From positions 1-54,801 of the forward strand of contig DAIRCJ010000002.1 of assembly GCA_036796755.1 (NCBI GenBank): 54,801 nucleotides of DNA. The letters run 5' to 3'. Source of the stretch: Candidatus Geothermocultoraceae bacterium. GTDB taxonomy: Bacteria > Actinomycetota > Aquicultoria > SKW223 > CALKMS01. Below, piece by piece: positions 7,588 to 47,474 of the stretch. How positions within the stretch are numbered: the first letter of the stretch is position 1; the number at the start of each line of letters is the position of its first letter. Under the pieces are notes generated by a model, which was given only the letters and a program-made list of their open reading frames with translations, was not told the DNA's origin and searched no databases. The position numbers and the translations under genes are program-made.

Positions 7588-10500
7588 TCAGGGTTGACTC
7601 TGGAGAGGGAAGCCCAGCGGTGTTTGCTTTTCTTGAGGAGAGATGATGAGGTGAGGGGCGGTATGTCCCCGATGACAAGCAGCGCAAAGGTCGCTATCGG
7701 CTTCAGCTCCACCAGGGGGAAGTTTAAACTCGGGAGATATACTTAAGTATCCGTCGGTACTGGTTGACTTAACTCGGTAATAATAAATGGTGTTGGTTGC
7801 CAGATTAGTCAGAGTTACCAGATGATTGGTAGTGTAGGTGTAATTGACTGCAGACTGATAAGCATAAGGAGCAGTGGGGCTGGGATGGGTGGTAGTGTCG
7901 TAAACGACCTGAGAAGTACCAGAAATGTCGGTTGTCCAGGTAATGGTAGTGTAAGTATAGGGAGGAGCAGTAGCTTCTCGGTCAAAATAGATGTGTTTAG
8001 CCCAGATGTTGGAGATAACCGGCCCTCCAGCTGTGGTGGTGTTAGGAGAAAACTCAGAAGTTGAAGGGTCAGGGTCAATGGTTAGAGCAGTCAAAATGGT
8101 TTCGTGAGTTACTCCCTTATTTTGAACATTCAGGACGAAAGAGAAAGAGTTGGTAGAAGTGGTTTCTCCCGAACCAAGATAAAAACTTCCTTCGCCATAG
8201 CCTGCCAAGTCTCCGCCGGACTTATAAACTTCCACCGTACAGCCGGCAAAATTTTTGCCTGCCGGGTCTGTTCCAATGTAACCTTCCAGATAAAGATTCC
8301 AGCCGCGAGCGTCAAGCTCGGCCCGGGTAATTATCGGATAGTCAGTTTCTTTGTTAGGGAAAGAAGGGTCTGTCGTGCCATTATTAGAGGTGACGGTGGA
8401 GTCATCAGATAAGTCTATTGGAAGAACTGAGCTGTTGGAGAAAGTGTTCTGAGTAATTTTTATGCCATTGCCAGAAGAAACGGATACCCCTTTGTTGTTT
8501 TGCTCAAGCCGATTTTTTTCAAGGGTTACCCGGGAGTCAGCAGCTTCCTCGTTCTTTAAACTTAATTTTGGTTCCGGGTAAGCAAGCTGTCGGTTTTGAA
8601 GAAGCCCGCAAGTCTGCTCTTCATCATTTAAAGAAGCATCTTCAAAGTAAGCATAGACTGGTTTTGATGCGTGAATTAAGCTTCCCGCGGGAATGTAAAC
8701 TCCTGAGGCGGTAGAACCGAAGAAGAACTTGCCGGGGTAATCTCCTGAAGCTTGAACCGAAACCACAGGTGCTTGAGTTGTTCCATCTGGCTCTTCAATC
8801 CAGATGCTGGTATCGGGGTAGGGAGCTGAAATAGCTACATACTGAGCATCAACCGGGATGCCCAGACAAATATTCAAGTTTGTTCTCTCAAAGAAGGTGG
8901 TTGATTCTAGCCCATCTCCGTCCGCTTGCTGGATGACGCCGATGGGGTTGCTGGCAATTAAATGAATTGAGGGTCCTGAACCCTGAGCTCCAAAAGGGTA
9001 TGGAGCCAGAGTTGCCAGGTTAACGCTCTGCCCCCGATTAAGAGTGAAGTTGACAGCAGTTTGAGTTCCGCTTTCATAAGCGAGGTAAGCCGTGACTGAA
9101 GTATTGTTAGCCAGAGCCGCTACATAAGCGTTTTGCGAACCAACCCCGAAAAGTTCAGTTGAGGCCGGATGCATTACAAAACTATCAGAGGGGGAAGCGT
9201 CGTAGGTTGCCAGAACCGGAGCTTCACTTTCAATTATCACTACTCGGGGGGAAGCTCCAATGGTGTAGTGAAGAGATTCTCCTCTGGCTACCTGAGTGGT
9301 AACCGAGCTGCTGAGAGTTCCGGTGGTGAGGTAGACACTGATGGTTAAACTGGTGTCAGTGAAAGGAGAAAGGATGTCAATTTGGGGGGTGTTTCTTTGA
9401 GCAGGGTAAACAAAGCGGGTGGAAGCAAAGGAGAGAGGAACCAGGGTTTCGGAGACATCAGTGATAAAAGCGGAACAAAGGGGTTTGTTGGAGCTAAAAG
9501 AAGTGGTGGGAGAGAGAGTGTTGCTGAGAAAGGTATGAGTTTCGCCCGGGTTCAGAGCTACAGTTTCTCCGCTGGCATCATTTCTAATGATAGTAGCGGG
9601 CAGTCCAGCCATTACTTGGAGATTGGAAGTTGCGCTTCTCTGGCTCACTACATACTTGTTGGTTTTAATCTCTGAATAAGAGAAGAGATCATAAGGAAGT
9701 TCCAGAGAAGGAGCCCGGGGGTTTCCGTAAAGGAGAGTGATGGTGGTTACCGAAGAAGGAGGAATGGTGGGAACTTTTACCCAGATGCGCGAGGTTCCAC
9801 TGGTGTCCCAGTTGTGAATCCAGTAATCAAGAGGTTCTCCTTGGCTGGAAAGGAAGCGAATATCACTTCCATCAGGTTGAGCTCGAGAATAATCAAAGTT
9901 TGAAGGGGTAATGGTTACCAGAACCTGATACTCGGTAAGGGTGGTGGTGCCTGAGTAGTCAATGGTTATTGGCTTCTGATAGTGCCAACCCCAGACATTA
10001 ACCCCCCGATTAAATTTCCTTAAGTTGAGATTTTTAAGGCTGGTGTTCAGTCCTTTGACCGTTAAGCCGTCGGCTGAAGAAATCAGGGAGCCGTCCAGAA
10101 CGATCTTTCCCTGGTTGTACTCGGTTTGAGTGCTTCCGTCAATCACTGTTGAACTGTCGGTTAAGTGAGGAAGTTCGCTGGAGAGAGTGATGACAAACTC
10201 CCTGTTCGTGGACTGGTAGTTGGGGTCGGTCTGGGGAATCTTGAAGTTTATGCTCTGTCCCTTTTTAATGGCGGAGGCGTTTAAAAGAGCCTGACGCAGA
10301 GAGCCCTGAATAGTGCGAGCTGAAGAAGGGTCGTCATCGCCGTCACGAGTGTTGACTATTACTTCAAAACTAAAACCAAAATCAATTTCTTCCAGATTTT
10401 CCCCTTCAAGGTCAATCCGGGCAATATGTTCGTAGTTGTTGTCGCTTACCACCGTTGAAGTGGTGAAATTATCTGAGAGGAGAGGGTTCTTTCCGCCCAG

Positions 10501-12282
10501 GCAGGACTCCACCTGATAGCGGCCGTTTAAATACTCTTTAACGTAGGTTTGCTCGGCCCAGACTTCCTCAGCTTTTCTTTCCGGATAAAGACCATTGTTT
10601 TCGGGAGCGGGCTTAATATCGCGGGAGTTTACCACCACATAGTAGGTGTGCCCTTCAACTCCCGGGAGAAAATAGTAGCCTTCAGTGTCGGTTTGGGTTT
10701 CGGTAATAAAAGTATCACCTGAGGTTAACCCCTGATTTCCATCCTTTTCTTCATAAAGCCGAACTCTAACGCCGGCTTTTCCTTCATCCTCTTGAGGGTC
10801 AAAAGCATCACCAGAAGCGTCCGCGTCTTCAAAGACTCTTCCTTTGATAGCCAGAATTTGAACCGTAGGTTCAGGGTCAACTCTTTTAGCTATTGGGAAA
10901 ACACCTTCTTCGCCAAAAGCCAGAAAGTAAACATCTTCCCCGGTGTGGGCGGTAGTGCCTTCCATTCCTGTTCCCCGAGTGTAGTCTTCTTCCACAGCCA
11001 CCTGGAAAGTTTGGGTAGTCTCGTTTCGATAGCGAAGTTCTGAGTTGTCGCCTCCGTCATAACTTCCCAGAGAAAGCAAAAGAATAGGAGGCGAGGAAAA
11101 GTTTTGACTGAAATTAACCGTGGTCCAGCCATTTCCAATTCCCACCACGTTATCGTAGGATATTCCTATCTGGTAAGGGGTAGGTGTAGAGTCGTTGGTC
11201 TGGTTAGGAATGGTTCCGGTAGTACTTTCGGTTAAACCTTTTCTTTCTAGGGCAATCCAGGCTATGGTTTCAGTAGTAAATCTTTGGGTGTTATTATTAT
11301 ATTCTTCTTCCAGGGCAACTTGAAAGGAGCGATCGTTGTCTCTCAAATCCTGAAGCCTGGTTTTTACTAATCTTGCTTCTTGAGTAAGGTCGTTTGAACT
11401 CATTGGCTGGGCAAAAACCACCGGGTCGCTACCAGTTGAAGAGTAGTTAAGAGAAAAGCTTTGAGTGTCCCAAACATCAGGGGCAACATTGGCTCCTACG
11501 GTGGAGCGGGTCTCATATTTCTGGGCTTCAATACGAGTCCCATCCAAAAACTGGTAGCTACCTTCATTAAGAATCAGGGCTCCGACTGTTTCAGTTGGGT
11601 GAACATTATCTCTCAAGCTACACTCAATAACCCTCAAGAAAAAGGAGGTTGAAGTGGTGTCTTTTATTCTGACCACTGCGCTTTCAGCATTGTTATAGGA
11701 AAGATGTTGAGCAATGACAACTGGGTTGGTGAAGGTGGTGGAAAGAGAAACATTATCCCAGGTCCAGGTAGAGGGGTTGTTTCCGTTTTCTCCGGTAAGG
11801 GTGGTATTGGTTGTGTTTATCCTTCGAATCTCCAGGAAGTCCATAGTTTCTTCTAGATTGCTTTCGGGAAGGGCTGAGGAGTTTCCATAGTAAAGGTCAA
11901 TTCTTTTGGTTTCATTTGGGGAAAGATGAGGGATTTTTACCCAGATTACGGCTTCGCTTCCGTAAGCCCACCTTTCAATCCAGTAAGGAAGAAAATTCCC
12001 GTTTTCCATAAATCTGAGGTCAGAACCGTCCGGGTTTGCTCCGGCAAAGTTGAAGTTGTTGGGGTTAAGAACTACCTTTACCTGATAGTCGTAAAGGTCT
12101 ATACCGGCTCTTTCTTTTATCTCTATTACTTTGTGATAAGCCCAGCCAGGAAGTTGAGCCTGGGTAAAAGGGGCGCTGAGAATGATTACCGAAACTGCTA
12201 CTGCAAATATAAAAGGTAAGTAAGGGGTGGGCTTACTTACCTTGCTAATTTTTAAAGCAAACTTTTTAAATGGTTCTTTCAT
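7588..12282 (-). CDS. Giant secreted/surface protein: 2x DUF2341, three H-lectin-like repeats, SdrD-B/Cna-B-like domain, parallel beta-helix adhesin module, FN3-like domain and a C-terminal CxxCH motif
   Basis: - Signal-like N-terminus: 'PFIFAVAVSVIILSAPFTQAQ'.
- DUF2341 signatures: 'DGSDLRFMENGNFLPYWIERW' and 'DGSDIRFLSSQGEPLDYWIHNW'.
- SdrD-B/Cna-B-like: 'GRVFEDADASGD...GVRVRLY...TDTEGYYF'.
- Beta-helix adhesin module: 'GSLRQALLNAS' ... 'LTALTIDPDPSTSEFS'.
- FN3-like: 'ITWTTD...YYYRVKS'.
- C-terminal 'LCAACHRGH'. Confidence 0.75.
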   Translation of the reverse strand: MKEPFKKFALKISKVSKPTPYLPFIFAVAVSVIILSAPFTQAQLPGWAYHKVIEIKERAGIDLYDYQVKVVLNPNNFNFAGANPDGSDLRFMENGNFLPYWIERWAYGSEAVIWVKIPHLSPNETKRIDLYYGNSSALPESNLEETMDFLEIRRINTTNTTLTGENGNNPSTWTWDNVSLSTTFTNPVVIAQHLSYNNAESAVVRIKDTTSTSFFLRVIECSLRDNVHPTETVGALILNEGSYQFLDGTRIEAQKYETRSTVGANVAPDVWDTQSFSLNYSSTGSDPVVFAQPMSSNDLTQEARLVKTRLQDLRDNDRSFQVALEEEYNNNTQRFTTETIAWIALERKGLTESTTGTIPNQTNDSTPTPYQIGISYDNVVGIGNGWTTVNFSQNFSSPPILLLSLGSYDGGDNSELRYRNETTQTFQVAVEEDYTRGTGMEGTTAHTGEDVYFLAFGEEGVFPIAKRVDPEPTVQILAIKGRVFEDADASGDAFDPQEDEGKAGVRVRLYEEKDGNQGLTSGDTFITETQTDTEGYYFLPGVEGHTYYVVVNSRDIKPAPENNGLYPERKAEEVWAEQTYVKEYLNGRYQVESCLGGKNPLLSDNFTTSTVVSDNNYEHIARIDLEGENLEEIDFGFSFEVIVNTRDGDDDPSSARTIQGSLRQALLNASAIKKGQSINFKIPQTDPNYQSTNREFVITLSSELPHLTDSSTVIDGSTQTEYNQGKIVLDGSLISSADGLTVKGLNTSLKNLNLRKFNRGVNVWGWHYQKPITIDYSGTTTLTEYQVLVTITPSNFDYSRAQPDGSDIRFLSSQGEPLDYWIHNWDTSGTSRIWVKVPTIPPSSVTTITLLYGNPRAPSLELPYDLFSYSEIKTNKYVVSQRSATSNLQVMAGLPATIIRNDASGETVALNPGETHTFLSNTLSPTTSFSSNKPLCSAFITDVSETLVPLSFASTRFVYPAQRNTPQIDILSPFTDTSLTISVYLTTGTLSSSVTTQVARGESLHYTIGASPRVVIIESEAPVLATYDASPSDSFVMHPASTELFGVGSQNAYVAALANNTSVTAYLAYESGTQTAVNFTLNRGQSVNLATLAPYPFGAQGSGPSIHLIASNPIGVIQQADGDGLESTTFFERTNLNICLGIPVDAQYVAISAPYPDTSIWIEEPDGTTQAPVVSVQASGDYPGKFFFGSTASGVYIPAGSLIHASKPVYAYFEDASLNDEEQTCGLLQNRQLAYPEPKLSLKNEEAADSRVTLEKNRLEQNNKGVSVSSGNGIKITQNTFSNSSVLPIDLSDDSTVTSNNGTTDPSFPNKETDYPIITRAELDARGWNLYLEGYIGTDPAGKNFAGCTVEVYKSGGDLAGYGEGSFYLGSGETTSTNSFSFVLNVQNKGVTHETILTALTIDPDPSTSEFSPNTTTAGGPVISNIWAKHIYFDREATAPPYTYTTITWTTDISGTSQVVYDTTTHPSPTAPYAYQSAVNYTYTTNHLVTLTNLATNTIYYYRVKSTSTDGYLSISPEFKLPPGGAEADSDLCAACHRGHTAPHLIISPQEKQTPLGFPLQSQP

Positions 12283-28733: not shown

Positions 28734-29642
28734 CTATAAAGGGAACTTCAGGTTTAACTTTTCTTTTTCCAGAAAATCAAGGAAAGCTTTCTGGGGGGGA
28801 GTAGGGGTTGATTTAACTCGGAAAACATAGAAAATCTCTCTTCTTATGGGTTTTTTAAGCGGGACGATGTTGATCAATTTAGAAAGCCAGGCTTGTCGAG
28901 CAGCCCAGCGAGACACAACTGAAATTCCCAGACCGGCTTCAACGGCAGATAAAATCGCCTGAGTGCTGCCAAGCTCGATCACTACCTCCAGCTCCTTTAA
29001 GCTTATTCCTTCTTTTTCCAGCTCCTGCTGAAAGGTTTTAAGGGTTCCCGAACCCGATTCTCTAATTAAAAAAGGATATTTGGCTGCTTCTTTCAAAGAT
29101 ATGCTTTTTTTTCTGGCTAAGGGATGGTTAGGTGGAGCAATTAAAACCAGCTCATCAGGGACGAGTCTTTTAAAAGAAAGGCGGGAGTGGGGAAAGGTTG
29201 TACCGACAAATCCCAGACCAATCTCTTGCTCCATAACCTTTCTAACTATTTCCAAAGAGTCACCAATTTCAATTGAAACCTTGACTTTGGGATATTTCTT
29301 TTTAAAAAGGGAGATCAAATTAGGAAGAATATATTCGCCAGGGATGGTGCTGGCGCCAATTTTTAACTCCCCACCGACTTCACCCGAAAGAGAGGCAATT
29401 TCTTCTTTTGCCTCTTGCTCCAGCTGAAGGATTTTTCGGGCGCGATGGTAGAGGATTTCTCCGGCCGAGGTAAGGGTTAGTTGCTGGCTGGCGCGATCAA
29501 TTAAGGGCTGACCATATTTTTTTTCCAGAGCTTTAATCTGAAAACTTATAGCCGGCTGACTTAAACCAAGCTTTTCGGCAGCCTTAGAAAAGCTTTTTTT
29601 CTCCGCAACAATGACAAAGGTTCTTAAGTAATCAAAATTCAT
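28734..29642 (-). CDS. LysR-family transcriptional regulator, divergent from selD
   Basis: N-terminal wHTH 'FVIVAEKKSFSKAAEKLGLSQPAISFQIKALE' plus a LysR substrate-binding domain. Confidence 0.85.
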   Translation of the reverse strand: MNFDYLRTFVIVAEKKSFSKAAEKLGLSQPAISFQIKALEKKYGQPLIDRASQQLTLTSAGEILYHRARKILQLEQEAKEEIASLSGEVGGELKIGASTIPGEYILPNLISLFKKKYPKVKVSIEIGDSLEIVRKVMEQEIGLGFVGTTFPHSRLSFKRLVPDELVLIAPPNHPLARKKSISLKEAAKYPFLIRESGSGTLKTFQQELEKEGISLKELEVVIELGSTQAILSAVEAGLGISVVSRWAARQAWLSKLINIVPLKKPIRREIFYVFRVKSTPTPPQKAFLDFLEKEKLNLKFPL

Positions 29643-29671
29643 TTTTATAACTAACTTAAATTTATTTTATA
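29643..29671 (+). promoter_or_regulatory. Candidate selD promoter (TTATAA-N17-TATAAT) overlapping a LysR-type ATAA-N11-TTAT dyad (29645-29663)
   Basis: Read directly from the 68-bp divergent spacer. The consensus -10 TATAAT lies at 29666-29671, about 40 nt upstream of the selD ATG. The background is AT-rich, so specificity is low. Confidence 0.3.
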
Positions 29672-29710
29672 ATTACTTGTATTTCAAGATTAAATTTTAA
29701 GGAAGGAGAT

Positions 29711-30739
29711 ATGGTAAAGCTAACCCATCTGGTTAAAAAGAGTGGCTGAGCTTCCAAGATAGGTCCGGCGGACCTTTCTAAGGTTCTGGATAGTTTTGAT
29801 TTTGGCCAGTCAAAAGAGGTGCTGGTTGGTCTGGACACCCCTGATGACGCGGCTGTTTACCAACTGGATTCAGGCAAATTGCTGGTGCAAACCGTGGATT
29901 TTTTCACCCCTATTGTTAACGACCCCTATCTCTTTGGCCAGATTGCCGCGGCCAACGCCCTTTCCGATATCTACGCTATGGGAGGAAAGCCGTTAGTGGC
30001 TTTAAACATCGTTGCTTTCCCCTGCAAGCTGGATTTTTCTTTGCTTTCCGAAATTCTAAGAGGGGGAAAAGAAAAGGTAGAAGAAGCCGGGGCTTTTATT
30101 ATTGGTGGGCATTCAGTTGACGATGATGAACCCAAGTACGGGCTGGCGGTAACGGGAGAGGTGGAAAGAGAAAGACTAACCACAATTGATCAGGCGCAAC
30201 CGGGAGATTTTCTGGTTTTAACCAAACCGCTGGGTTTGGGAATTTTGGCGACGGCTTTAAAAGCTGATTTTTTGACCGAAAAGGACATTGAGGAGCCGAT
30301 AAGCAAGGCTACTTATTTAAATAAAGGGGCGGCGGAGGCAGCTGCTCAAGTGGGGGCTAAAGCGGTAACCGATATTACCGGTTTTGGACTTCTGGGTCAT
30401 CTTTACGAAATGCTTAAAGCCAGTGGTGCGGGAGCTGAGATTAACTTGAAAGAAGTGCCCTATTATCAAAAGGCTATTGAGTTTATTGAATCAGGAATAA
30501 TTCCAGCCGGCCTTTATGATAATCGTCGCTTTTTAGAAGGCAAAGTTGAGATAGCTTCAGATTTGAGTGAAGCCCTGGTAGACCTTCTTTTTGACCCTCA
30601 AACTTCGGGCGGTCTTTTAATCTGCATTTCAGAAAGCAAATTGGATGATCTCCTCAAACTTTTAAAAGACAGAGCTCCAGTGGCTTCGGTTGTTGGAAGA
30701 GTGGTTGAGGGAGAGGTAAAAATAAGAGTTAAAGCTTGA
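29711..30739 (+). CDS. selD: Selenide, water dikinase (selenophosphate synthetase), selenocysteine-containing, with in-frame UGA at 29747-29749
   Basis: ATG at 29711 follows AAGGAAGGAG. Translation gives 'MVKLTHLVKKSG-U-ASKIGPADLSKVL', in frame with the ORF-track fragment 29819-30739. The UGA aligns with the catalytic Cys, and the Lys three residues later with the catalytic Lys, of the SelD N-terminal G(C/U)xxK loop. The remainder is an AIR-synthase-like fold. Confidence 0.85.
29753..29784 (+). promoter_or_regulatory. Candidate bacterial SECIS stem-loop for selD
   Basis: The hairpin GGTCC-GGC-GGACC (29762-29774) starts 12 nt after the UGA and can be extended by A61-T75, A59-T77, G58-C78, A57-T79 and CC/GG pairs. 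The apical loop begins with GG. Confidence 0.5.
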
Positions 30740-30806
30740 AGCGCCGGGATTTAAAGACTTTAAAAATCATTATCCCTCCTTTGCTTTTTCTATAAAAATT
30801 TTTTAT

Positions 30807-30835
30807 TTGAAAAATAAAAATTTCTTTGCTACCAT
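30807..30835 (+). promoter_or_regulatory. Candidate promoter TTGAAA-N17-TACCAT upstream of the dehydratase-like gene
   Basis: -35 at 30807-30812 and -10 at 30830-30835. The AAAGGAG ribosome-binding site at 30852 and the ATG at 30867 follow. Confidence 0.3.
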
Positions 30836-30866: not shown

Positions 30867-32141
30867 ATGGCTGACTGGTGTAAAATGTGGGAGGCAATGG
30901 GATTAAACCTTGAAGCTCACGATGAGCTTTTAAATGCTCTCCCCCCAATTTATCAGGAAATCTACCTCAATCAGGAAAATCGCCCGAAAAAAATGGAGTA
31001 CTTTGATCTGGTGGTAGCGGAAATTCACGGTTTGCGGATTAAGGAGCTTCAAGACATTAGAACCAATGGTGGCAAAGTGGTGGGAACTTTCTGCGTTTAT
31101 GTACCCGAAGAGATAGTTTTAGCCGCCGGTGGAACCTGCATTGGTCTTTGTGGAGGAGTTGATGTAGGAGCTGACGAAGCCGAAAAAGTTCTTCCCCGCA
31201 ATATTTGCCCTTTAATTAAGTCCTTTATGGGTTTTAAACTGAGCAAAATTTGCCCTTACTTTGAGTCTTGCGATGTAGTGGTAGGAGAAACAACCTGTGA
31301 CGGGAAAAAGAAAGCTTTTGAGGTCCTCTCTGATTTTACCCAGGTTTATGTGATGGAGACTCCTCAAAGAAAAGAAGAGGTGGATAAGGAACTCTGGTTT
31401 TCTGAAGTAAGAAGGTTTAGGGAAATGATGGAAGAACTTACCGGAAAAAAGATAACTGAAGAGTCTTTAAAAGAAGCCATTAAAAAAGTCAACGGGAAAA
31501 GGAGAGCTTTACAAAGGCTCTCGGAGTTGCGGAAAGCTGACCCTCCACCTATCAGCGGAAAAGACGCTCTTTTAATTGAGCAGATTGCTTTCTATGACGA
31601 TGTAGAAAGATTTACCCAGAAAGTCAATGAGCTTTGCGACGAACTTGAGGAAAGGGTAAAGAAAGGGGAAGGAGTGGTTCTTTCGGGAACTCCTCGAATT
31701 ATTGTTTCGGGAACGCCTATGGCTATTCCTAATTGGAAAGTTCCCCACATTATTGAAACCAGCGGGGCAGTAATCGTGGCTGAAGAGCTTTGTACTGGGA
31801 TGCGCTATTTCCAGGATTTAACTTTAGAAACTGATGGTTCAGTTGAGACCATGCTTAAAAACATTGCCGAAAGGCATATTGGAATTGACTGCGCTGTTTT
31901 TACTCCCAATGGAGAGAGAGCAGAAAAGGTAGCCCGCCTCTTTAAAGATTACCGGGCTAACGGCGTTGTCCACTATGTTCTTTCTTTCTGTGACCCTTAT
32001 TCGGTGGAGGCTTATCAGATTGAAAAAATGGCTAAGAGGGAAAACATCCCCTTGCTCAAAATAGAAACCGATTACAGCCAGGAAGATGTAGGTCAGTTAA
32101 AGACCAGAGTTGAAGCTTTTCTGGAGATGATAAAGGCTTGA
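30867..32141 (+). CDS. 2-hydroxyacyl-CoA dehydratase / BcrC-BadD-HgdB family Fe-S protein (double-cubane-cluster-protein-like)
   Basis: I prefer the ATG at 30867 with its ribosome-binding site over the TTG at 30807. Cys-rich blocks 'GTFCVYVPEEIVLAAGGTCIGLCGG', 'RNICPLIKS', 'CPYFESCDVVVGETTCDGKKK', 'EELCTGMRY' and 'VLSFCDPY' are typical of the HGD-D family. Confidence 0.75.
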   Translation: MADWCKMWEAMGLNLEAHDELLNALPPIYQEIYLNQENRPKKMEYFDLVVAEIHGLRIKELQDIRTNGGKVVGTFCVYVPEEIVLAAGGTCIGLCGGVDVGADEAEKVLPRNICPLIKSFMGFKLSKICPYFESCDVVVGETTCDGKKKAFEVLSDFTQVYVMETPQRKEEVDKELWFSEVRRFREMMEELTGKKITEESLKEAIKKVNGKRRALQRLSELRKADPPPISGKDALLIEQIAFYDDVERFTQKVNELCDELEERVKKGEGVVLSGTPRIIVSGTPMAIPNWKVPHIIETSGAVIVAEELCTGMRYFQDLTLETDGSVETMLKNIAERHIGIDCAVFTPNGERAEKVARLFKDYRANGVVHYVLSFCDPYSVEAYQIEKMAKRENIPLLKIETDYSQEDVGQLKTRVEAFLEMIKA

Positions 32142-32926
32142 AAAGAAGTCTTAATAATCCAGAAGAGAAGACTAGATTTGGTGGGCTGGACATAGGCTCA
32201 AGGACGGTGGCTTTAGTAGAGCTTAAGAATGGCTCTTATGACTACTGGATTGAGGAGACTTCTCATTCTCCTTTAAAAGTTGCGGAAAGGCTGGTTAAAG
32301 GAAAATCATTTGCCTATCTAGTAGCTACCGGCTATGGTCGTCATTTAGTTCGGGCTCGCTTTGCTCAAGAAGTAATTACTGAGATTAAGGCCTATGCTAT
32401 AGGAGCGTGCCATCTTTATCCCGAGGTAAGAACAATCCTGGATATTGGAGGGCAGGACACCAAGGTAATTGTTCTTAATGAGGGGGGGAAGGTTGCTGAT
32501 TTTCAAATGAATGAGAAGTGCTCAGCTGGCACCGGGAAGTTTCTTGAAGTAATGGCCAAAGCCCTTGGCTATTCTCTAGAAGAATTTGGAAAAGAGGCTT
32601 TGAAAGCCAAAAAGAAGGTCAAGGTTTCCTCAATGTGCACGGTTTTTGCTGAGTCAGAGGTGGTTTCCCTCCTTCATGAAGGCGAGGAGAGAGAAAGCAT
32701 TGCTTATGCGGTTCACGCCTCCATTGCTGAAAGAGCAGTCGGGATGCTCAAAAGAGTGGGAGTGGTGGAACCCTTGCTTTTTGCCGGCGGGGTGGCTAAA
32801 AACCCCTGTCTGGTAAAGATTCTTCAAGAAAAACTGAAGAAGGAGGTGATAGTGCCAGAAGAACCGCAAATAGTTGGCGCCTTAGGCGCCGCTATTTATT
32901 CTTTTCGTTCAGGCAAGAAATCTTAA
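32138..32926 (+). CDS. BcrAD/BadFG/HgdC-type ATPase (CoA-substrate-specific enzyme activase, [4Fe-4S]-bridged)
   Basis: ASKHA-fold motifs 'GLDIGSRTVALV', 'ATGYGR' and 'LDIGGQDTKVI'; cluster ligands 'NEKCSAGTGKFLE' and 'SMCTVFAESEV'; C-terminal 'GGVAKNPCLV' and 'PQIVGALGAA'. Its start overlaps the upstream stop. Confidence 0.8.
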   Translation: MKRSLNNPEEKTRFGGLDIGSRTVALVELKNGSYDYWIEETSHSPLKVAERLVKGKSFAYLVATGYGRHLVRARFAQEVITEIKAYAIGACHLYPEVRTILDIGGQDTKVIVLNEGGKVADFQMNEKCSAGTGKFLEVMAKALGYSLEEFGKEALKAKKKVKVSSMCTVFAESEVVSLLHEGEERESIAYAVHASIAERAVGMLKRVGVVEPLLFAGGVAKNPCLVKILQEKLKKEVIVPEEPQIVGALGAAIYSFRSGKKS

Positions 32927-32941: not shown

Positions 32942-34042
32942 ATGAAAAAAGAGTATAGTTTGATGGCTTTGGCTGGAGTAATTATAGGTGCTCTGATTAT
33001 CTCTCTTATGAAATTGGGCAATCCACCAAATATGGGAATCTGTATTGCTTGCTTTGAAAGGGACATTGCGGGGGCACTCGGGCTTCACCAGGCAAAGCTA
33101 GTTCAGTATATTCGGCCGGAAATCATAGGGATAGTTTTTGGGGCTCTGGTTGCTGCCTTAATTTTCCGCGATTTTAAGCCAACTTCTGGCTCTTCTCCCT
33201 TAATCCGCTTTATGCTGGGGATGTTTTCAATGATTGGCGCTTTAGTTTTCCTCGGTTGCCCTTTAAGGATGACCATTAGGTTAGGTGGCGGAGACTTAAA
33301 TGCTCTGGTGGGTCTTCTGGGATTTGTAGCTGGAATTGCTGTTGGAACGCTCTTTTTGAAATCAAACTTTGATTTGGGAGCAGCTAAAAAAACTTCTTCT
33401 CTGGAGTCCTATGTTCTTCCCTTGATTATGCTTCTTTTGCTTCTTTTGCTCTTTTTTAAGCCAGTTTTTAATGAGAAAGCCGGTGGACCTATCTTTTTTT
33501 CTATAGAAGGACCTGGTTCAAAGCATGTTCTTCCTTTAATTGGTCTGGCGGCTGGTTTAATAGTGGGCGTTTTGGCTCAGCGGACTCGTCTTTGTTTTGC
33601 CGGGGGCATTCGGGACCTAATCCTTTTTAAAGAGCTTTATCTTATCTCTGGCTTTGTGGTTATCTTTTTAACTGTTCTCTTGGGGAATTTACTCCTTGGC
33701 ACCTTTAAACTTAGCTTTAGTGGTCAACCTATTGCTCACACCGAACATCTCTGGAATTTTTTGGGGATGGGTTTGGTAGGTTTAAACGCGGTTTTACTTG
33801 GAGGTTGCCCTCTGCGCCAACTGGTTTTAGCTGCTCAAGGAAGTGGCGACTCGGCCTTGACCGTTTTGGGCTATATTTTTGGGGCGGGCGTAGCTCACAA
33901 TTTAATGCTGGTTGGCTTTCCGCCTCCCATTCCTCCAGCTACTGGCCCAACCGGGGTTTTAATCTATGGGAAAGTTGCGGTAATTGTGGGTATAATTTTT
34001 TCTCTTCTTGTTGGTTATTTTAATCTTTCCAGGCAAAAGTAG
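32942..34042 (+). CDS. yedE: YedE-family putative selenium/sulfur-compound transporter
   Basis: Polytopic membrane protein with 'GNPPNMGICIACFERDIAGALGLH' and a second 'RTRLCFAGGIRD' half-repeat, characteristic of the selenium-associated YedE family. Confidence 0.8.
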   Translation: MKKEYSLMALAGVIIGALIISLMKLGNPPNMGICIACFERDIAGALGLHQAKLVQYIRPEIIGIVFGALVAALIFRDFKPTSGSSPLIRFMLGMFSMIGALVFLGCPLRMTIRLGGGDLNALVGLLGFVAGIAVGTLFLKSNFDLGAAKKTSSLESYVLPLIMLLLLLLLFFKPVFNEKAGGPIFFSIEGPGSKHVLPLIGLAAGLIVGVLAQRTRLCFAGGIRDLILFKELYLISGFVVIFLTVLLGNLLLGTFKLSFSGQPIAHTEHLWNFLGMGLVGLNAVLLGGCPLRQLVLAAQGSGDSALTVLGYIFGAGVAHNLMLVGFPPPIPPATGPTGVLIYGKVAVIVGIIFSLLVGYFNLSRQK

Positions 34043-34076: not shown

Positions 34077-34691
34077 ATGAGAGAAGTTGATGCTCGGGGT
34101 TATCCCTGCCCTCAGCCGGTTTTAATGACTAAAAAAGTGGTTGATGAGGGGGAAGAAGAGGTTTTAGTCTGGGTGGATAATCGGGGTTCGGCCGAAAATG
34201 TAGCTCGCTTTGGGGAAAAATCCGGTTATGAAGTTAAAATTGAGGAAGAAGGCGGAGATTTTAAGGTCTGGCTAAAAAGAGGTGGGGGAGTTAAAACCGA
34301 AGCTCCAGCTCAAGTAGCGGAAATAACTTGCGAAACTGGGAGCTGGAAGCTTTTAAAAGAAAAAACCCTCTTCATTTCCACTGATTCTTTAGGGAGAGGA
34401 AGTGAAGAGCTGGGAAGGATACTTATCAAGGCTCTCTTAAATACTCTGGCTGAAAATCAAGTCCTTCCAGAAAAAATAGTTCTTATCAACTCCGGGGTGA
34501 AACTGGCCTGTGAAGATTCGGATGTTCTTGATGCTCTAAAGAAAATAAGTCAGAAGGGGGTTGAGCTTTTGGTTTGTGGCACTTGCCTTAACTTTTTTGA
34601 GCTTACCGATAAGATTAAAGTTGGAAGGGTTTCCAATGCTTATGAGATTTTAAATATTTTAATGGAAGACCAGATAGTCCCTTGGGGCTAA
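34077..34691 (+). CDS. yedF: YedF-type selenium metabolism protein (TusA/SirA-like N-domain + DsrE-like C-domain)
   Basis: N-terminal 'DARGYPCPQPVLMTKK' (TusA CPxP motif), and a C-terminal domain with 'VLINSGVKL' and 'LLVCGTCLNFF'. Confidence 0.8.
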   Translation: MREVDARGYPCPQPVLMTKKVVDEGEEEVLVWVDNRGSAENVARFGEKSGYEVKIEEEGGDFKVWLKRGGGVKTEAPAQVAEITCETGSWKLLKEKTLFISTDSLGRGSEELGRILIKALLNTLAENQVLPEKIVLINSGVKLACEDSDVLDALKKISQKGVELLVCGTCLNFFELTDKIKVGRVSNAYEILNILMEDQIVPWG

Positions 34692-34767
34692 TTTTTACCG
34701 AGAAGTTTTAAAATTTAGTTTGTTTCAATAGTTGCTAAGTTTTTAAAGGCCAGTTATTATTGCTTTT

Positions 34768-35817
34768 ATGCTTGAGGTTAAAGAGGCAAAAAAAGTTTTA
34801 GATGAGGCTTATTTTTTTATCCCCGATGCCAGCCCTTCCAGTTTCTATCGCTTTGTTTTCCCATTAAGACATTTTCGAAGCCAGGGTCTAAAACCTCATC
34901 TTTCCGCTGTTATTCAACCAGATTATTTTGAAAAGGGGCGAGTTTTCTTTTTTCAAAGGGTAGCCGATAGAAGCCTGTTTGACTTAAGCCTGGCTCTTAA
35001 AAATCAACCCCGGGCAATGGTTTTTGACCTTGATACTTACATTGAGCCTCCGCCTTACCATCCAAACTATCATTTTTATCATTCAATGAAACCTTACTTA
35101 GAAATGGTTATTCAGTCCGCTTCTTTTTTAACCGTCCCCACTTTAAAACTCAAAGAAGAGCTCAAAGATTATAATGAAAACATCTTCGTTTTGCCCAATA
35201 AATACAGCCGTGAAGTTCTGGAAGGAGTAAGGGAAGTAGAAAAGACCAAGCTTAAGCTGGAAGCCGGTTTACCTTCCCACTCAGTGGTTATTGGCTGGGC
35301 GGGAGCTCCTTTTAGTCTTCATGAGCTTGCCTTTCTGGAGAGGGTTTTGAACAGGCTTTTTGAGAAGTTTAACTACCTTTACTTTGCTGTCTGGGAAAGC
35401 GAACCTCAATTTCTTTCTCTACCTCAGGAAAGAAGAGTAAAGTTTGACTTTTTACCTCTTTCTTCTCTCTTTGTTTCCCTGGGGTTGGTCGACATTGGCA
35501 TTATCCCTGCAGAGAACACTCTTTTTAATCAATGTAAATCGGGGCGGATGGTTTTTGAGTATGGGCTGGCAAAGACAGCGGTTCTGGCCCAAAAAATTGA
35601 GCCTTTTGAAAATTTAAAGGGGAAGGGTGCTCCAATTGAGCTGGCGGGAAGCGATAAAGAGTGGGAAGAAAAACTGGTTGAAATGATAAAAGAGGACGAG
35701 AAACGATTTAGAAGAGGGGAGGAGCTTAGAAAGTGGGTGGAAAGCAACTGCTTTTTTGGCGAAAAAGAGGAAGAATGGGAAGTTTTTTTGAAAAAGTTGG
35801 CTGAGGTTTTGGAATGA
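34768..35817 (+). CDS. Putative GT-B-fold glycosyltransferase (paralog of 45076-46104)
   Basis: It shares the blocks 'VVIGWAG...H..DLAF', 'DIGI.P...N.FN..KS' and 'EYG' with ORF 45076-46104. Family assignment is tentative. Confidence 0.45.
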   Translation: MLEVKEAKKVLDEAYFFIPDASPSSFYRFVFPLRHFRSQGLKPHLSAVIQPDYFEKGRVFFFQRVADRSLFDLSLALKNQPRAMVFDLDTYIEPPPYHPNYHFYHSMKPYLEMVIQSASFLTVPTLKLKEELKDYNENIFVLPNKYSREVLEGVREVEKTKLKLEAGLPSHSVVIGWAGAPFSLHELAFLERVLNRLFEKFNYLYFAVWESEPQFLSLPQERRVKFDFLPLSSLFVSLGLVDIGIIPAENTLFNQCKSGRMVFEYGLAKTAVLAQKIEPFENLKGKGAPIELAGSDKEWEEKLVEMIKEDEKRFRRGEELRKWVESNCFFGEKEEEWEVFLKKLAEVLE

Positions 35818-39829: not shown

Positions 39830-40332
39830 ATGGTATAACAAAAAATAAGGGGAGTTTATCAGGAGCTTTTAAGTAGAGCTTTAAAAAAACTAAAGGCTTT
39901 TTACCAAGAAAATCTGGTTTCAGTAGTAGTTTTTAGATCTGTAGCCAGAGAAACGCCGAGTCCTGAATCCGACCTTGGTGTTTTAATAGTTTGCGAAGAG
40001 CTTCCCCGGGGGTGAGAAAAAGGTTGGAAGAGTGTATGAAAATAGAAGAGGATTTGAGTGAATCAATTCGCGAAGCGGAAAGAAAAGGGGTAAGAACGGA
40101 GATTTCACCAGTTCTAAAAACCCGGGAAGAGGTAAAAAAAAGTTAGCCTCCTTTTTCCTGATTTTGTAGAAGAGGCAAAAATTCTCTATAATGGGGATTT
40201 ATTTTTTTCTTCTTTTCTGGAGGAGTTCAAAAAAAGCTGGAAGAATTAGAAGCGAAAAGGATAAAGCAGGGCGACCGCTGGTATTGGGTTCTCAAGCCAA
40301 ATTTCAAACCGGGCGAGGTGTTTGAGATTTGA
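39830..40332 (+). pseudogene. Decayed nucleotidyltransferase (MNT-type antitoxin) gene
   Basis: It starts ATG GTA TAA, so codon 3 is a nonsense codon. It then reads 'YQELLSRALKKLKAFYQENLVSVVVFRSVARETPSPESDLGVLIVCEELPRG', followed by frameshifts at G/A/T homopolymers: 'RKRLEECMKIEEDL...PVLKTREEVKK', 'FLDFVEEAKILYNGDLFF', 'LEELEAKRIKQGDRWYWVLKPNFKPGEVFEI*'. Confidence 0.65.
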
Positions 40333-40882: not shown

Positions 40883-42256
40883 TTAAATGAGTTTTTTAAT
40901 TTTCTGTTGGGCGTCCAGAGCCGCGTCTCCGATAACTTCTGCTATTGTCGGATGAGTGTAAATATGAGAGGCAAGCTCTTTTAAATTGGCTCCGCTTCTC
41001 ATTGCCACTGAGATTATCTGAACAAGCTCGGAAGCACTTTCTCCAAAAATATGGGCTCCGAGAATTCTTCCGCCTGGACTTTCGGCGATTATTTTTACTA
41101 TCCCCTCTTCTAATGACTCAGCCCAGTAAACTCCTTCTTCTCTGAGCTTAGCTTTTCCTACCACGTAAGCGAGACCAGTTTTTTTAACTTCTTCTTCAGT
41201 CAATCCGACACTTCCGATTTCCGGTTGAAAGTAAATGGCTCGGGGAACTATTGAGTAATCAACAGTTTCAACATTGCTTTCAATTGCGTTTTTAGCGGCC
41301 AGATTTCCTTCATAATAGGCTACTGAGGTAAGCATAAAACCGCCAATACAGTCGCCTGCGGCATAGATATGGGGCTGGCTGGTCTGGAGAAACTCATTGA
41401 CTTTTATTCCTTTCCTGTCTGCTTCCAAACCGGCTTTGTCAAGTTCAAGGTGTTCAAGATTGGGAATTCTTCCTAGAGCGTTCATAACCAAAGGAAAGAT
41501 AGAAGTTCTTTCCTTGCCCGATTGCTCGTAGGTAAGCTCAAAACCCTTCTTGGTCTGGTTTATTTTTTTAACCATAGATGAGCTAAAGATAGTTATACCT
41601 TTTTTTCTCATTGAGCTTTCCAGAGCTCTTGATATTTCTTCGTCTTCACTGCTGGCTAATCTTTCTCTCATTTCAATCAGGGTTACCTTAACTCCGGCCT
41701 GAGAAAAAATATAGGCAAACTCTAAAGCCACCGCTCCCCCGCCCAGAATAGCTATTTCCTCAGGCAAAGAGGGCAGGTTAAAGGCTTCGTCGCTGGTCAG
41801 GCAGTTTTGAATTCCTTCCACCGGTGGCAGTGCGACTCGGGAACCGCAAGCAACTATTATTTTTTTCGCTTTCACTCTTTCCTTTCCAGCTTTTAATTCA
41901 TTGGGGCTCAAAAAAGTGGCTTTTTCGGGGATTAAATCTACCTTCCAGCGTTTGATGGCTTCATTTCTCTTTTCTCTGAGGAAGTTTACTATATCATCTT
42001 TTCTTTTCCGGGCTTTTTCCCAGTTGAACCTAGCTGAACTTATTTCTATTCCAAATTCATGAGCTTTCTTAACTGTTTCAGCTACCTTTCCCGACCTTAC
42101 CAAGGCCTTTTTGGGGATACACCCCCTGTTAAGTCAGGTGCCGCCTAAATTACCGTAGTCAGCGAGTCCAACTTTTAAATTTGCTTTAGCGGCACGGGCA
42201 GCAGCTGCCATTCCAGCCGTTCCGCCTCCGATGACAAAAAAGTCGTATTCTTTCAT
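40883..42256 (-). CDS. Class-I pyridine nucleotide-disulfide oxidoreductase (Lpd/MerA/GR family) with in-frame UGA (42134-42136) at the first redox-active Cys; candidate selenoprotein
   Basis: ATG at 42256 follows AAGGAG. 'MKEYDFFVIGGGTAGMAAAARAAKANLKVGLADYGNLGGT-U-LNRGCIPKKAL' is in frame (codon 41) with ORF 40883-42103. It has a second Rossmann fold 'ILGGGAVALEFA' and the C-terminal dimerisation-domain motif 'HIYTHPTIAEV'. Confidence 0.75.
42093..42126 (-). promoter_or_regulatory. Candidate SECIS hairpin(s) downstream of the oxidoreductase UGA
   Basis: The minus-strand RNA after the UGA reads CUUAACA-GGGG-GUGUAU-CCCC-AAAAA-GGCCUU-GGU-AAGGUC. It offers two stem-loops. The second (42093-42107) has six pairs including one G-U, and a GGU apical loop. 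Confidence 0.4.
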
Positions 42257-46298: not shown

Positions 46299-47474
46299 AT
46301 GAAGAAAAAAAAGTTAGTCTATATGGACAACGCAGCAACTTCTTATCCTAAGCCGCCTCAGGTCTTGAAGGCGATGATTAATTTTACTCAGAAAATTGGA
46401 GGAAATCCTGGCCGTTCTGGACATCGCCTTTCTCTGAAAGCCGGGGAAAAAGTTGAAGAAGCCAGAGAAGCAATTGCTGAATTGTTTAACATTAAAGACC
46501 CTTTACGGATTTCTTTTTCTTACAACGCTTCTCATGCTCTTAACTTTGCTTTGCTCGGCTTGCTTGAACCTGGCGATCATGTGATTACTACCAGTCTGGA
46601 ACATAACTCAGTTGCCCGTCCTCTTCGCTATCTTGAAGGCCTGGGAGTTAAGTTGACCATTTTGAAAGCCGACCCTTTAACCGGGGAGATTTCCCCTGTC
46701 GACTTTAAAAAGGCGATTAATCGGAAAACTCGAATGCTGGCGATGGTTCATGGTTCCAATGTAACTGGCAGGGTTTTGCCTTTGAGGCTTTTTGGAGAAA
46801 TTACTCGTCAACAGGGACTGATATTTTTAGTTGATGCAGCTCAAACTGCTGGTAGTTACCCGATAGATGTAGAGGAAGACCTGGTTGACCTTCTGGCTTT
46901 TACCGGCCACAAGTCCTTGCTTGGTCCTCAGGGAACTGGTGGTTTGTATGTTCGTCCAGGTATTCAGCTCAGGCCAACTTTGAGAGGAGGCACAGGCAGT
47001 CGCTCAGAAGAAGACCGCCATCCTTCTTTTCTCCCTGATCTTCTGGAAGCTGGCACTCTTAACGCAGTGGGTCTGGCCGGGTTAGCCAGTGGGGTTCGGT
47101 TTATTCTCAAAGAGACAGTGAAAAAAATTCGGGAAAAAGAAAAAGCACTTCTTAAAAGGCTTCTGGAGGGATTAAAAGAAATTGAATTTTTAGAGATTTA
47201 TAGCTCTCCTCAACCGGAAACCAATCTTTCGACAGTTTCCGTTAATTTTTCCAGTCTTAACCCTTCTGAGGTTGGTTATTTACTTGATAAGCGTTTCGGG
47301 ATTATGGTTCGGGTTGGTCTTCACTGTTCACCTTGGGCTCATCAGACTATTGGCACTTACCCTCGGGGGACAGTGCGGATAAGTATGGGTTATTTTAACA
47401 CCTTTCAGGAAGTTGATTACCTTATTGAGGCTTTTTGGGAAATCAGTAAACTGGCGAAAAGGAGAATGAGTTGA
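46299..47474 (+). CDS. Class V aminotransferase, NifS-like cysteine desulfurase / selenocysteine lyase family
   Basis: 'YMDNAATSYPKP', PLP-lysine block 'FTGHKSLLGPQGTGGLYV' and active-site 'RVGLHCSPWAH'. Confidence 0.85.
   Translation: MKKKKLVYMDNAATSYPKPPQVLKAMINFTQKIGGNPGRSGHRLSLKAGEKVEEAREAIAELFNIKDPLRISFSYNASHALNFALLGLLEPGDHVITTSLEHNSVARPLRYLEGLGVKLTILKADPLTGEISPVDFKKAINRKTRMLAMVHGSNVTGRVLPLRLFGEITRQQGLIFLVDAAQTAGSYPIDVEEDLVDLLAFTGHKSLLGPQGTGGLYVRPGIQLRPTLRGGTGSRSEEDRHPSFLPDLLEAGTLNAVGLAGLASGVRFILKETVKKIREKEKALLKRLLEGLKEIEFLEIYSSPQPETNLSTVSVNFSSLNPSEVGYLLDKRFGIMVRVGLHCSPWAHQTIGTYPRGTVRISMGYFNTFQEVDYLIEAFWEISKLAKRRMS

Follow-up and report, generated by a model that had tools for sequence, protein, structure and literature searches.

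A double-cubane cluster protein and its ATPase within a selenium locus: a candidate ATP-driven step in selenide supply

How do anaerobes make the selenide that SelD needs, and what is the physiological substrate of double-cubane cluster proteins (DCCPs)? One locus joins these two questions. It lies in a 54,801-nt stretch of DNA from Candidatus Geothermocultoraceae bacterium (contig DAIRCJ010000002.1 of assembly GCA_036796755.1, positions 1 to 54,801 of the forward strand; hereafter the window, whose positions are used as coordinates throughout), in which the genes for a DCCP and its ATPase, DCCP-R, are placed between selD and yedE-yedF. DCCPs were discovered in 2018, and papers from 2020 and 2022 stated that their physiological function was unknown. 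The route from imported selenium to selenide in anaerobes is not established, nor are the roles of YedE and YedF (PMC9312934). A first reading of the letters without database searches (the sequence-only reading) had proposed that the pair could be a dedicated reductive step in selenium assimilation, and our analysis partly supports that interpretation. The evidence makes it probable that the pair is functionally tied to selenium metabolism. Our best explanation, to which we assign a probability of roughly 0.4, is that the pair would serve as an accessory reductive step of selenium assimilation that feeds selenide to SelD.

ORF (open reading frame) listings and profile searches gave the gene order lysR_Se, selD, DCCP, DCCP-R, yedE and yedF, with lysR_Se on the minus strand, divergent from selD, and the last five genes on the plus strand. 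All four flanking genes scored above the cutoffs of selenium-specific NCBIfam equivalogs: selD (selenide, water dikinase; 29711..30739, +) reached 347.8 bits with TIGR00476 (cutoff 125); the YedE-family putative selenium transporter (32942..34042, +), which also matches PF04143 and has weak similarity to TsuA in the NCBIfam search, reached 467.4 bits with TIGR04112 (cutoff 200); YedF (34077..34691, +) reached 197.5 bits with TIGR03527 (cutoff 110); and the selenium-metabolism-associated LysR-family regulator LysR_Se (28734..29642, −; PF00126 and PF03466) reached 311.5 bits with NF040786, LysR_Sec_metab (cutoff 250). YedF is a selenium/sulfur carrier that joins a TusA-like domain (CPxP, Cys11) to a DsrE-like domain (C167-G-T-C170). 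Between selD and yedE lie the DCCP gene (30867..32141, +) and the DCCP-R gene (32138..32926, +). The sequence-only reading had described two coupled genes separated from their neighbours by short spacers. The position, the strand, a 4-nt overlap between the pair and the spacers of 15 nt (activase to yedE) and 34 nt (yedE to yedF) bear this out; the selD–DCCP spacer does not, being 127 nt long and holding a promoter-like site and a palindromic box.

The identity of the two genes is close to certain: they encode a DCCP and its DCCP-R. The first product is predicted to be, within the HgdB/BcrC/FldB superfamily, an [8Fe-9S] reductase component of the homodimer type; it has 424 residues, running from ATG 30867 to TGA 32141 behind the ribosome-binding site AGGAG (the mechanical ORF reaches a TTG at 30807). 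It matched PF06050 (E 2e-126) and the double_cubane family NF040772, which corresponds to FldB/C cluster IV (505.8 bits, cutoff 350), and aligned over residues 2-423 with PDB entries 6ENO and 7YYL (E 1e-163, approximately 65% identity). Its cysteine motif, C76-X18-C95-X18-C114-X29-C144-X164-C309-X32-C342-X32-C375, aligned in full with the cysteines of 7YYL and 6ENO, was invariant across 20 homologs and differed from the published spacings by no more than 1-2 residues in counting. The published motif consists of six ligands of the [8Fe-9S] cluster and one free cysteine beside it, Cys94 in the Carboxydothermus hydrogenoformans protein, DCCP_Ch (PMC7317905); its counterpart, the non-ligand cysteine of the window protein, is Cys95. 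Alignment from residue 2 (6ENO) or residue 6 (7YYL), without an N-terminal gap, shows that the N-terminal extension of class I is present, and the window protein is accordingly classed with the class-I DCCPs and predicted to carry their channel-closing helices. In DCCP_Ch this extension occludes the CoA channel; it defines class I, whose members are thought to act on small molecules (PMC7317905). The second product, of 262 residues (TTG 32138 to 32926), is an ASKHA-fold, [4Fe-4S]-bridged ATP-dependent reductase, or archerase. It matched PF01869 and TIGR00241 (236.9 bits, cutoff 125.4), had DCCP-R (7YYL_E, E 7e-51) as well as MbdQ, HadI and HgdC among its PDB matches, and contains the ATP motif GLDIGS together with Cys128 (MNEKCSAGTG) and Cys167 (SSMCTVFAE), both aligned with MbdQ cysteines. 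Its start overlaps the DCCP stop (GCTTGA), an arrangement that predicts translational coupling.

Judged by many database names, such a pair would instead belong to a 2-hydroxyacyl-CoA dehydratase of the classical type or to a class-I benzoyl-CoA reductase, with the ATPase as activator, and the PF06050 and PF01869 superfamilies are indeed shared with those enzymes. The sequence effectively refutes this assignment. As a dehydratase the pair scored far under every equivalog cutoff (HadC 130.7 against 700, HadB 21 against 750), and so it did as a benzoyl-CoA reductase (BzdN 104 against 454, BcrC 88 against 421, BzdQ 151 against 380, BcrA 152 against 578). There is one gene per type: the 54.8-kb window holds a single PF06050 gene, tblastn of the DCCP against the whole window matched only itself, and there is a single ATPase gene. 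The motif is the seven-cysteine double-cubane one, not the three-cysteine one, and the extension that blocks the CoA channel is present. As the sequence-only reading had stated, no CoA-transferase, acyl-CoA or aromatic-ring and aromatic-degradation genes were found among the genes called within 10 kb on either side of the pair. Because profile cutoffs, subunit count, cysteine motif and context agree, we assign the pair to the DCCP/DCCP-R system, and the earlier family assignments, a single-subunit double-cubane protein with an HgdC-type ATPase, stand.

We then asked how often the arrangement recurs. When a pattern was used to scan GTDB, with one genome taken for each species, at least 594 relatives were found, and the best 80 (55-88% identity), together with the window, gave 81 class-I DCCP loci (L numbers below). 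These 80 relatives come from Actinomycetota, Bacillota, Chloroflexota, Thermodesulfobacteriota, Nitrospirota, WOR-3, Zixibacteria and Spirochaetales, at least eight phyla by our count. Every ORF within 6 kb of the DCCP was called and clustered into families without prior expectation, with the DCCP itself and antisense shadow ORFs set aside. An activase-family ORF was present at 75 of the 81 loci. After it, the top specific neighbours were YedF (20 loci), LysR_Se (12) and SelD (11), with a generic ABC ATPase cluster (18) ranking between YedF and LysR; SelB and YedE came next, at four loci each. Also recurrent were a PstS-type binding protein with its two permeases (eight loci), a rhodanese and DoxX-like pair (five) and a "Dicluster-near-Sec"-like protein (four). 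The YedF assignments were confirmed by TIGR03527 in 18/18 proteins tested, and 8 of 10 LysR neighbours passed the NF040786 cutoff, with one just under it at 227 bits and one truncated.

At least one of the five selenium genes (YedF, LysR_Se, SelD, YedE or SelB) lay within 6 kb at 26 of the 81 loci, and at 11 of the 29 with complete flanks; these counts are lower bounds because many loci are on short contigs. Five randomly placed single-copy genes would be expected to give approximately 2-3% (p <= 5e-19). The selenium genes mostly abut the pair, with YedF directly after the activase or the DCCP and LysR_Se 74-270 nt upstream of the DCCP. The six-gene arrangement of the window was reproduced at the locus with 88% identity (L001). 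Independent gene calls showed selA-selB / lysR / selD-DCCP-activase-yedF around an 87%-identical relative (contig P0004), and yedF directly after a 69%-identical Bacillota copy. The co-localisation is thus not unique to the window genome, and its recurrence elsewhere puts the selenium-locus arrangement well outside what chance would give. Amino-acid-fermentation and aromatic operons are not where the closest homologs (55-91% identity) lie; their most frequent specific neighbours are those listed above. The sequence-only reading had named a unique co-localisation, or homologs in such operons, as grounds for refutation, and neither was borne out. The possibility that the selenium-linked copies form one clade was rejected: in a neighbour-joining tree of the 81 DCCPs the linked copies were scattered among unlinked ones, across phyla, and no selenium-specific subfamily could be defined. 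Because linked and unlinked copies are interspersed, the link is a property of the whole class rather than of one subclade, which suggests that it applies to class-I DCCPs as a whole.

Could the proximity nevertheless be incidental, with the pair a selenium-unrelated small-molecule reductase of strict anaerobes drawn near selenium genes by lifestyle, redox regulation or hitch-hiking? Two-thirds of the loci are unlinked, their neighbours are diverse (glutamine synthetase, glycine cleavage, a thiouracil-desulfurase-like gene), and SelD is common in anaerobes anyway. These points are opposed by a 10-15-fold enrichment over expectation, immediate adjacency in several gene orders across at least eight phyla, the pass rate of the LysR neighbours with a selenium-specific model and an operator-like box shared with selenium genes (described below). 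A census by Haft & Gwadz, who built NF040772, further placed 955 of 970 DCCPs scoring above 400 bits in SelD-positive assemblies (bioRxiv 10.1101/2022.07.06.499078), that is 98% co-occurrence with SelD, compared with 38% of genomes overall. Given this enrichment and co-occurrence, coincidental linkage is unlikely, and we consider a selenium-unrelated role distinctly so.

Beyond these families, the neighbourhoods contained several other recurrent genes. The conserved cysteines of YedF were seen in 16 orthologs adjoining a DCCP. Stand-alone DsrE-like CxxC proteins lie between the activase and selD in L069 (10421-10795), L080 (12187-12561), L023 (7591-7926), L012 (13959-14312) and L071 (4026-4424), and just upstream of the DCCP in a Pelotomaculum locus (L083, 9572-9904); some correspond to no more than the C-terminal half of YedF, and others are a distinct 124-residue type. 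These occurrences suggest that no partner accompanies the DCCP pair more constantly than the DsrE-like domain. A four-gene ABC transporter resembling PstS/PstC/PstA/PstB lies 0.1-4 kb downstream of the DCCP or activase in L004, L020, L040, L049, L051 and L052 (also L009 and L045). It passed a PstS-family model, with PstC and PstB under the equivalog cutoffs, and may import another oxyanion; selenite uptake through phosphate transporters is known (PMC9312934). At loci of the Thermodesulfobacteriota type (L029, L037, L042, L051 and L067), a DoxX/BT_3928-like membrane protein and a secreted rhodanese, which resembles the N terminus of the selenoprotein TsoB, are encoded upstream of the DCCP. Approximately ten loci have a second PF06050 paralog of 380-480 residues beside the class-I DCCP (L007 11343-12500, L010 12177-13322, L031 6506-7780, L033, L039, L070, L078 and others); in L007 and L010 it lies between the DCCP and the activase, and the window has no such paralog. 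NF045663-like proteins, below the cutoff and fused to a membrane SNARE-like/DedA region, are found beside the DCCP in four loci (L060 7321-9171, L067, L070 and L029).

The selD–DCCP spacer contains a palindromic LysR-type box, ATAAAAATTTTTTAT (ATAA-N7-TTAT; 30792..30806), 68 nt upstream of the DCCP start codon. In a consensus promoter scan it abuts a -35-like TTGAAA at 30807, and L001 has ATAAATAAATTTTAT at the matching position. ATAA-N7-TTAT occurs four times in the window against 0.96 expected. Within 200 nt upstream, it was found for the DCCP at 15 of 72 loci and for 7 of the 365 other genes at these loci that are preceded by a gap (Fisher p = 3e-8); the stricter form, ATAAA-N5-TTTAT, was found in 10/72 and 1/365, respectively. 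Across 1.79 Mb of locus DNA there were 83 boxes, 38 of them within 250 nt upstream of a DCCP, lysR_Se, yedF, selD or activase gene. Since three boxes fall between a lysR_Se and a DCCP gene that diverge from each other, the total is 41 box–gene pairs: 24 for the DCCP (counting the window's own site twice, through its copy L081), six for lysR_Se, five for yedF, four for selD and two for the activase. Boxes upstream of selD, yedF and lysR_Se were also found in loci without any DCCP. LysR_Se is itself often directly divergent from the DCCP, and in L041, L057 and L062 no other selenium gene was found nearby. The box has the shape of a LysR T-N11-A site, and because of this shape and its sharing with the promoters of selenium genes we place the DCCP operon in a putative LysR_Se regulon, as this short AT-rich motif suggests. 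The lysR_Se–selD divergent promoter region (29643..29710) has a conserved AT-rich block (TTTTTATAACT.A.TTAAATTTATTTTATAATT), near-identical in L001, that contains a one-mismatch version of ATAAA-N5-TTTAT and may be regulatory.

How might such a pair serve selenium assimilation? YedE would import a selenium species, and the TusA-like CPxP and DsrE-like CGTC motifs of YedF would hold selenium as a zero-valent or perselenide-type adduct. DCCP-R would spend ATP to push electrons of very negative potential into the [8Fe-9S] cluster of the DCCP, which would reduce a small selenium substrate to selenide, reached through narrow channels, near the free Cys95. The selenide would then pass to the selenocysteine/cysteine loop of SelD and leave as selenophosphate, with the pair a member of the LysR_Se regulon. 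The properties of DCCP_Ch on which this scheme draws are its narrow substrate channels, a cluster that neither dithionite nor Ti(III) citrate can reduce, and a strict need for both DCCP-R and MgATP in the reduction of acetylene, azide and hydrazine (PMC7317905). The scheme also offers a rationale for an ATP-driven reductase. The literature searched gave no citable potential for the Se(0)/HSe− couple. From standard constants (E0 of Se/H2Se −0.399 V, pKa 3.89), we calculated that at pH 7 it lies at approximately −0.72 V (1 M) and −0.54 V (1 uM), which is below ferredoxin, and this would make it one of the few assimilatory couples to justify such an enzyme. As judged from sequence and context, the claim that the pair specifically makes selenide for SelD is tentative, and we hold it at somewhat less than even odds. 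The fullest form of the proposal is doubtful: that class-I DCCPs with their ATPase are a dedicated, nitrogenase-like selenium reductase of anaerobes, supplied by YedE and YedF-DsrE, controlled by LysR_Se through the ATAAA-N5-TTTAT operator, and converting zero-valent or carrier-bound selenium into selenide for SelD.

Several observations weigh against a role in selenide supply. Approximately two-thirds of class-I DCCP loci have no selenium gene within 6 kb. Desulfosporosinus youngiae and Thermincola potens have class-I pairs without a nearby selenium gene; in Desulfothermobacter the DCCP stands beside glutamine synthetase with neither an adjacent activase nor a nearby selenium gene; and the Carboxydothermus islandicus ortholog, 97% identical to the crystallised enzyme, is followed by gcvTHP, its upstream side falling beyond the contig end. 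A census in the other direction, starting from YedF, covered 80 loci from metagenomes, of which many were short contigs; a DCCP-family gene was present in 6 (approximately 7%) and SelD in 31. Three of the six were class I, and three were only 38-47% identical. The DCCP is thus an accessory rather than an obligatory or universal partner of the selenium core, and most SelD/YedF systems work without an adjacent one. The need for the chemistry may also be questioned: for perselenides and selenotrisulfides, thiols or thioredoxin can act as the reductant (PMC9312934), so an extreme reductant is not obviously required. In the window itself, the 127-nt spacer may allow the pair to be transcribed separately from selD, and the proposed operator is short and AT-rich. 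Searches of the literature on yjiM function and on selenophosphate with dehydratase found no experimental link between DCCPs and selenium. Finally, genomic co-occurrence cannot separate a supplier of selenide from a client of SelD, and the operon and regulon data are equally compatible with the client direction.

In that direction the DCCP would need SelD-derived selenium, for example in a selenium-bridged [8Fe-8S-Se] cluster, or would belong to a pathway with obligatory selenium-dependent steps. Haft & Gwadz raised this as a formal possibility from the near-absolute co-occurrence noted above, proposing that DCCPs either process selenium compounds or carry a selenium-bridged cluster (bioRxiv 10.1101/2022.07.06.499078), and the presence of selA and selB as well at some loci fits it. 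The crystallographic model of DCCP_Ch made in E. coli, on the other hand, has a sulfide at the mu2 bridge, and this protein reduced acetylene (PMC7317905); the recurrent neighbours are carriers, transporters and regulators, with no conserved candidate for a selenium-insertion maturase among them. We regard the client direction as unlikely.

A third possibility keeps the chemistry and changes its purpose: the pair might salvage or detoxify a compound of selenium, another chalcogen or a metalloid rather than supply SelD. It could do so by splitting organoselenium or organometallic substrates reductively, as has been proposed for SAO-linked DCCPs, or by reducing selenite or tellurite that oxyanion transporters bring in. 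Haft & Gwadz linked DCCPs to the SAO organometallic locus (bioRxiv 10.1101/2022.07.06.499078), many loci have no selD nearby, and the neighbours include the PstS-type ABC transporter (eight loci, below the Pst equivalog cutoffs), the rhodanese/DoxX-like pairs (five) and the DsrE-like proteins. In Pelotomaculum thermopropionicum a DsrE-like gene, an ABC transporter and an ArsP-type permease stand in place of selenium genes beside the pair. In the window, by contrast, the pair lies between selD and yedEF, an assimilation context, and no lyase or efflux genes were found at the locus; the narrow channels of class I (PMC7317905) also speak against bulky organic substrates. This role seems to us rather unlikely, and selenide supply through the DCCP pair remains our preferred explanation. 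As a separate observation, a 2-thiouracil-desulfurase-like gene (PF04463, weak; L085 9213-9761) is divergently adjacent to the DCCP pair of Thermincola potens.

How much of this is new? The window pair is a new member of a known family, and the family-level association with selenium has already been published. The sequence-only reading had considered the role undescribed, and this holds only in part. No experimental link was found in the literature, but the selenium connection is made by Haft & Gwadz in 2022, and the STRING partners of YedE, YedF, LysR_Se and DUF3343 in Slackia that Lin et al. 2015 tabulate without discussion include a "2-hydroxyglutaryl-CoA dehydratase subunit" and a "CoA-substrate-specific enzyme activase" (PMC5322559, Table 1). 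A 2022 review of prokaryotic selenium metabolism makes no mention of the DCCP pair (PMC9312934). What we add is a census at operon level that spans phyla and has YedF, LysR_Se and SelD as top neighbours, the finding that linked copies are dispersed over the tree, a candidate shared operator and an explicit reaction scheme. If the pair were a dedicated reductase, this would be the first physiological function for the DCCP family, and the location of 98% of DCCPs in SelD-positive genomes would have an explanation; as a supplier of selenide it would be a new ATP-driven step in trace-element assimilation. If selenium were instead part of the DCCP cluster, this would be a new selenium cofactor, and either outcome, supplier or client, would account for the near-absolute co-occurrence. 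The genomic context makes DCCP function directly testable, and the C. hydrogenoformans DCCP and DCCP-R have been overproduced in E. coli, purified and crystallised (PMC7317905).

Several other features of the window touch on selenium. selD starts at ATG 29711 and has an in-frame TGA at codon 13 (29747-29749), reading MVKLTHLVKKSG-TGA-ASKIG, in a context kept in L001; because of this codon we take selD to encode a selenoprotein. A hairpin just 3' of the UGA (29757..29779, +; core GGUCC-GGC-GGACC, centroid fold) has a weak z-score (-0.85) and is therefore a plausible selenocysteine insertion sequence (SECIS) element by position only. Neither a riboswitch nor an annotated SECIS nor a tRNA-Sec came up when the window was scanned against Rfam and for tRNAs. 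A promoter and terminator scan of the window gave consensus-level matches only, not above shuffles; among these is a terminator-like hairpin with a T-run over the yedF stop (34675..34700, +), the probable end of the operon. On the opposite strand, 6-7 kb downstream of yedF, a pyridine-nucleotide-disulfide oxidoreductase (40883-42256, −) resembles lipoamide dehydrogenase, MerA and glutathione reductase (GR), below all equivalog cutoffs. An in-frame TGA (42134-42136) stands precisely where the first cysteine of its redox-active CxxxxC motif is expected (GGT-U-LNRGC-IPKK), which makes it a probable selenoprotein. A member of the class-V aminotransferase/cysteine-desulfurase family (46299-47474, +) scored 447 bits with TIGR01977, above the cutoff, and second best, at 347 bits and below the cutoff, with the selenocysteine lyase SclA; it could provide an alternative route of selenium delivery to SelD.

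Directly downstream of yedF, an ORF of 349 residues (34768-35817, +) has no Pfam or NCBIfam match and is followed by glycosyltransferase and methyltransferase genes. Two further ATAA-N7-TTAT matches (39845-39859 and 40188-40202) fall in an ORF-poor stretch at 39.2-40.9 kb with small genes, including one for a HEPN protein. Genes with a Pfam hit within 10 kb on either side encode ABC/RND transport, LytR_cpsA_psr, glycosyl- and methyltransferase and HEPN proteins and the oxidoreductase above, and a few genes lack a hit. A 1564-residue protein (7588-12282, −) with DUF2341 repeats and a purple-acid-phosphatase-N-like domain is unrelated to the DCCP finding, and the remainder of the window consists of housekeeping genes.

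Among characterised systems, the window pair is closest to DCCP_Ch/DCCP-R_Ch of Carboxydothermus hydrogenoformans (CHY_0487/0488; 6ENO and 7YYL), with which it shares approximately 65% full-length identity, the seven-cysteine motif, the N-terminal extension and an adjacent ASKHA ATPase gene. The two settings differ: the 97%-identical Carboxydothermus ortholog has glycine-cleavage genes next to it, and the window copy lies in a selD-yedEF operon with LysR_Se. YjiM/YjiL of E. coli, a class-II DCCP system compared here by its published description, also has the NF040772 family, the seven-cysteine motif and a partner ATPase, but YjiM lacks the channel-closing N-terminal helices predicted in the window protein and may take larger substrates (PMC7317905). 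HadBC/HadI, HgdAB/HgdC and the Bcr, Bzd and Mbd enzymes share with the pair their fold superfamilies and the principle that an archerase spends ATP to inject electrons; they are hetero-oligomers, take CoA thioesters as substrates and contain [4Fe-4S] clusters (for some benzoyl-CoA reductases an [8Fe-9S] cluster is reported), whereas the pair here has a single subunit type and no CoA-pathway genes beside it. The YedE/YedF pair has its own parallel in thiosulfate uptake by YeeE/YeeD (TsuA/TsuB), which combines a paralogous membrane protein with a TusA-like carrier. TIGR04112 and TIGR03527, the subfamilies to which YedE and YedF are assigned, are specific for selenium, and YedF, unlike its counterpart, has an additional DsrE-like CGTC domain. 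The Fe protein and MoFe protein of nitrogenase offer a functional analogy: a dimer bridged by a [4Fe-4S] cluster hydrolyses ATP to feed electrons to an 8-Fe cluster, which reduces small molecules such as acetylene, azide and hydrazine; the folds are unrelated to those of DCCP/DCCP-R, and no nif genes are present here. Selenite reduction by glutathione or thioredoxin, and delivery by NifS, CsdB or selenocysteine lyase, end at SelD, the same acceptor as that proposed for the DCCP pair (PMC9312934). These known routes to selenide are thiol-based or pyridoxal-phosphate-based and do without an ATP-driven low-potential step.

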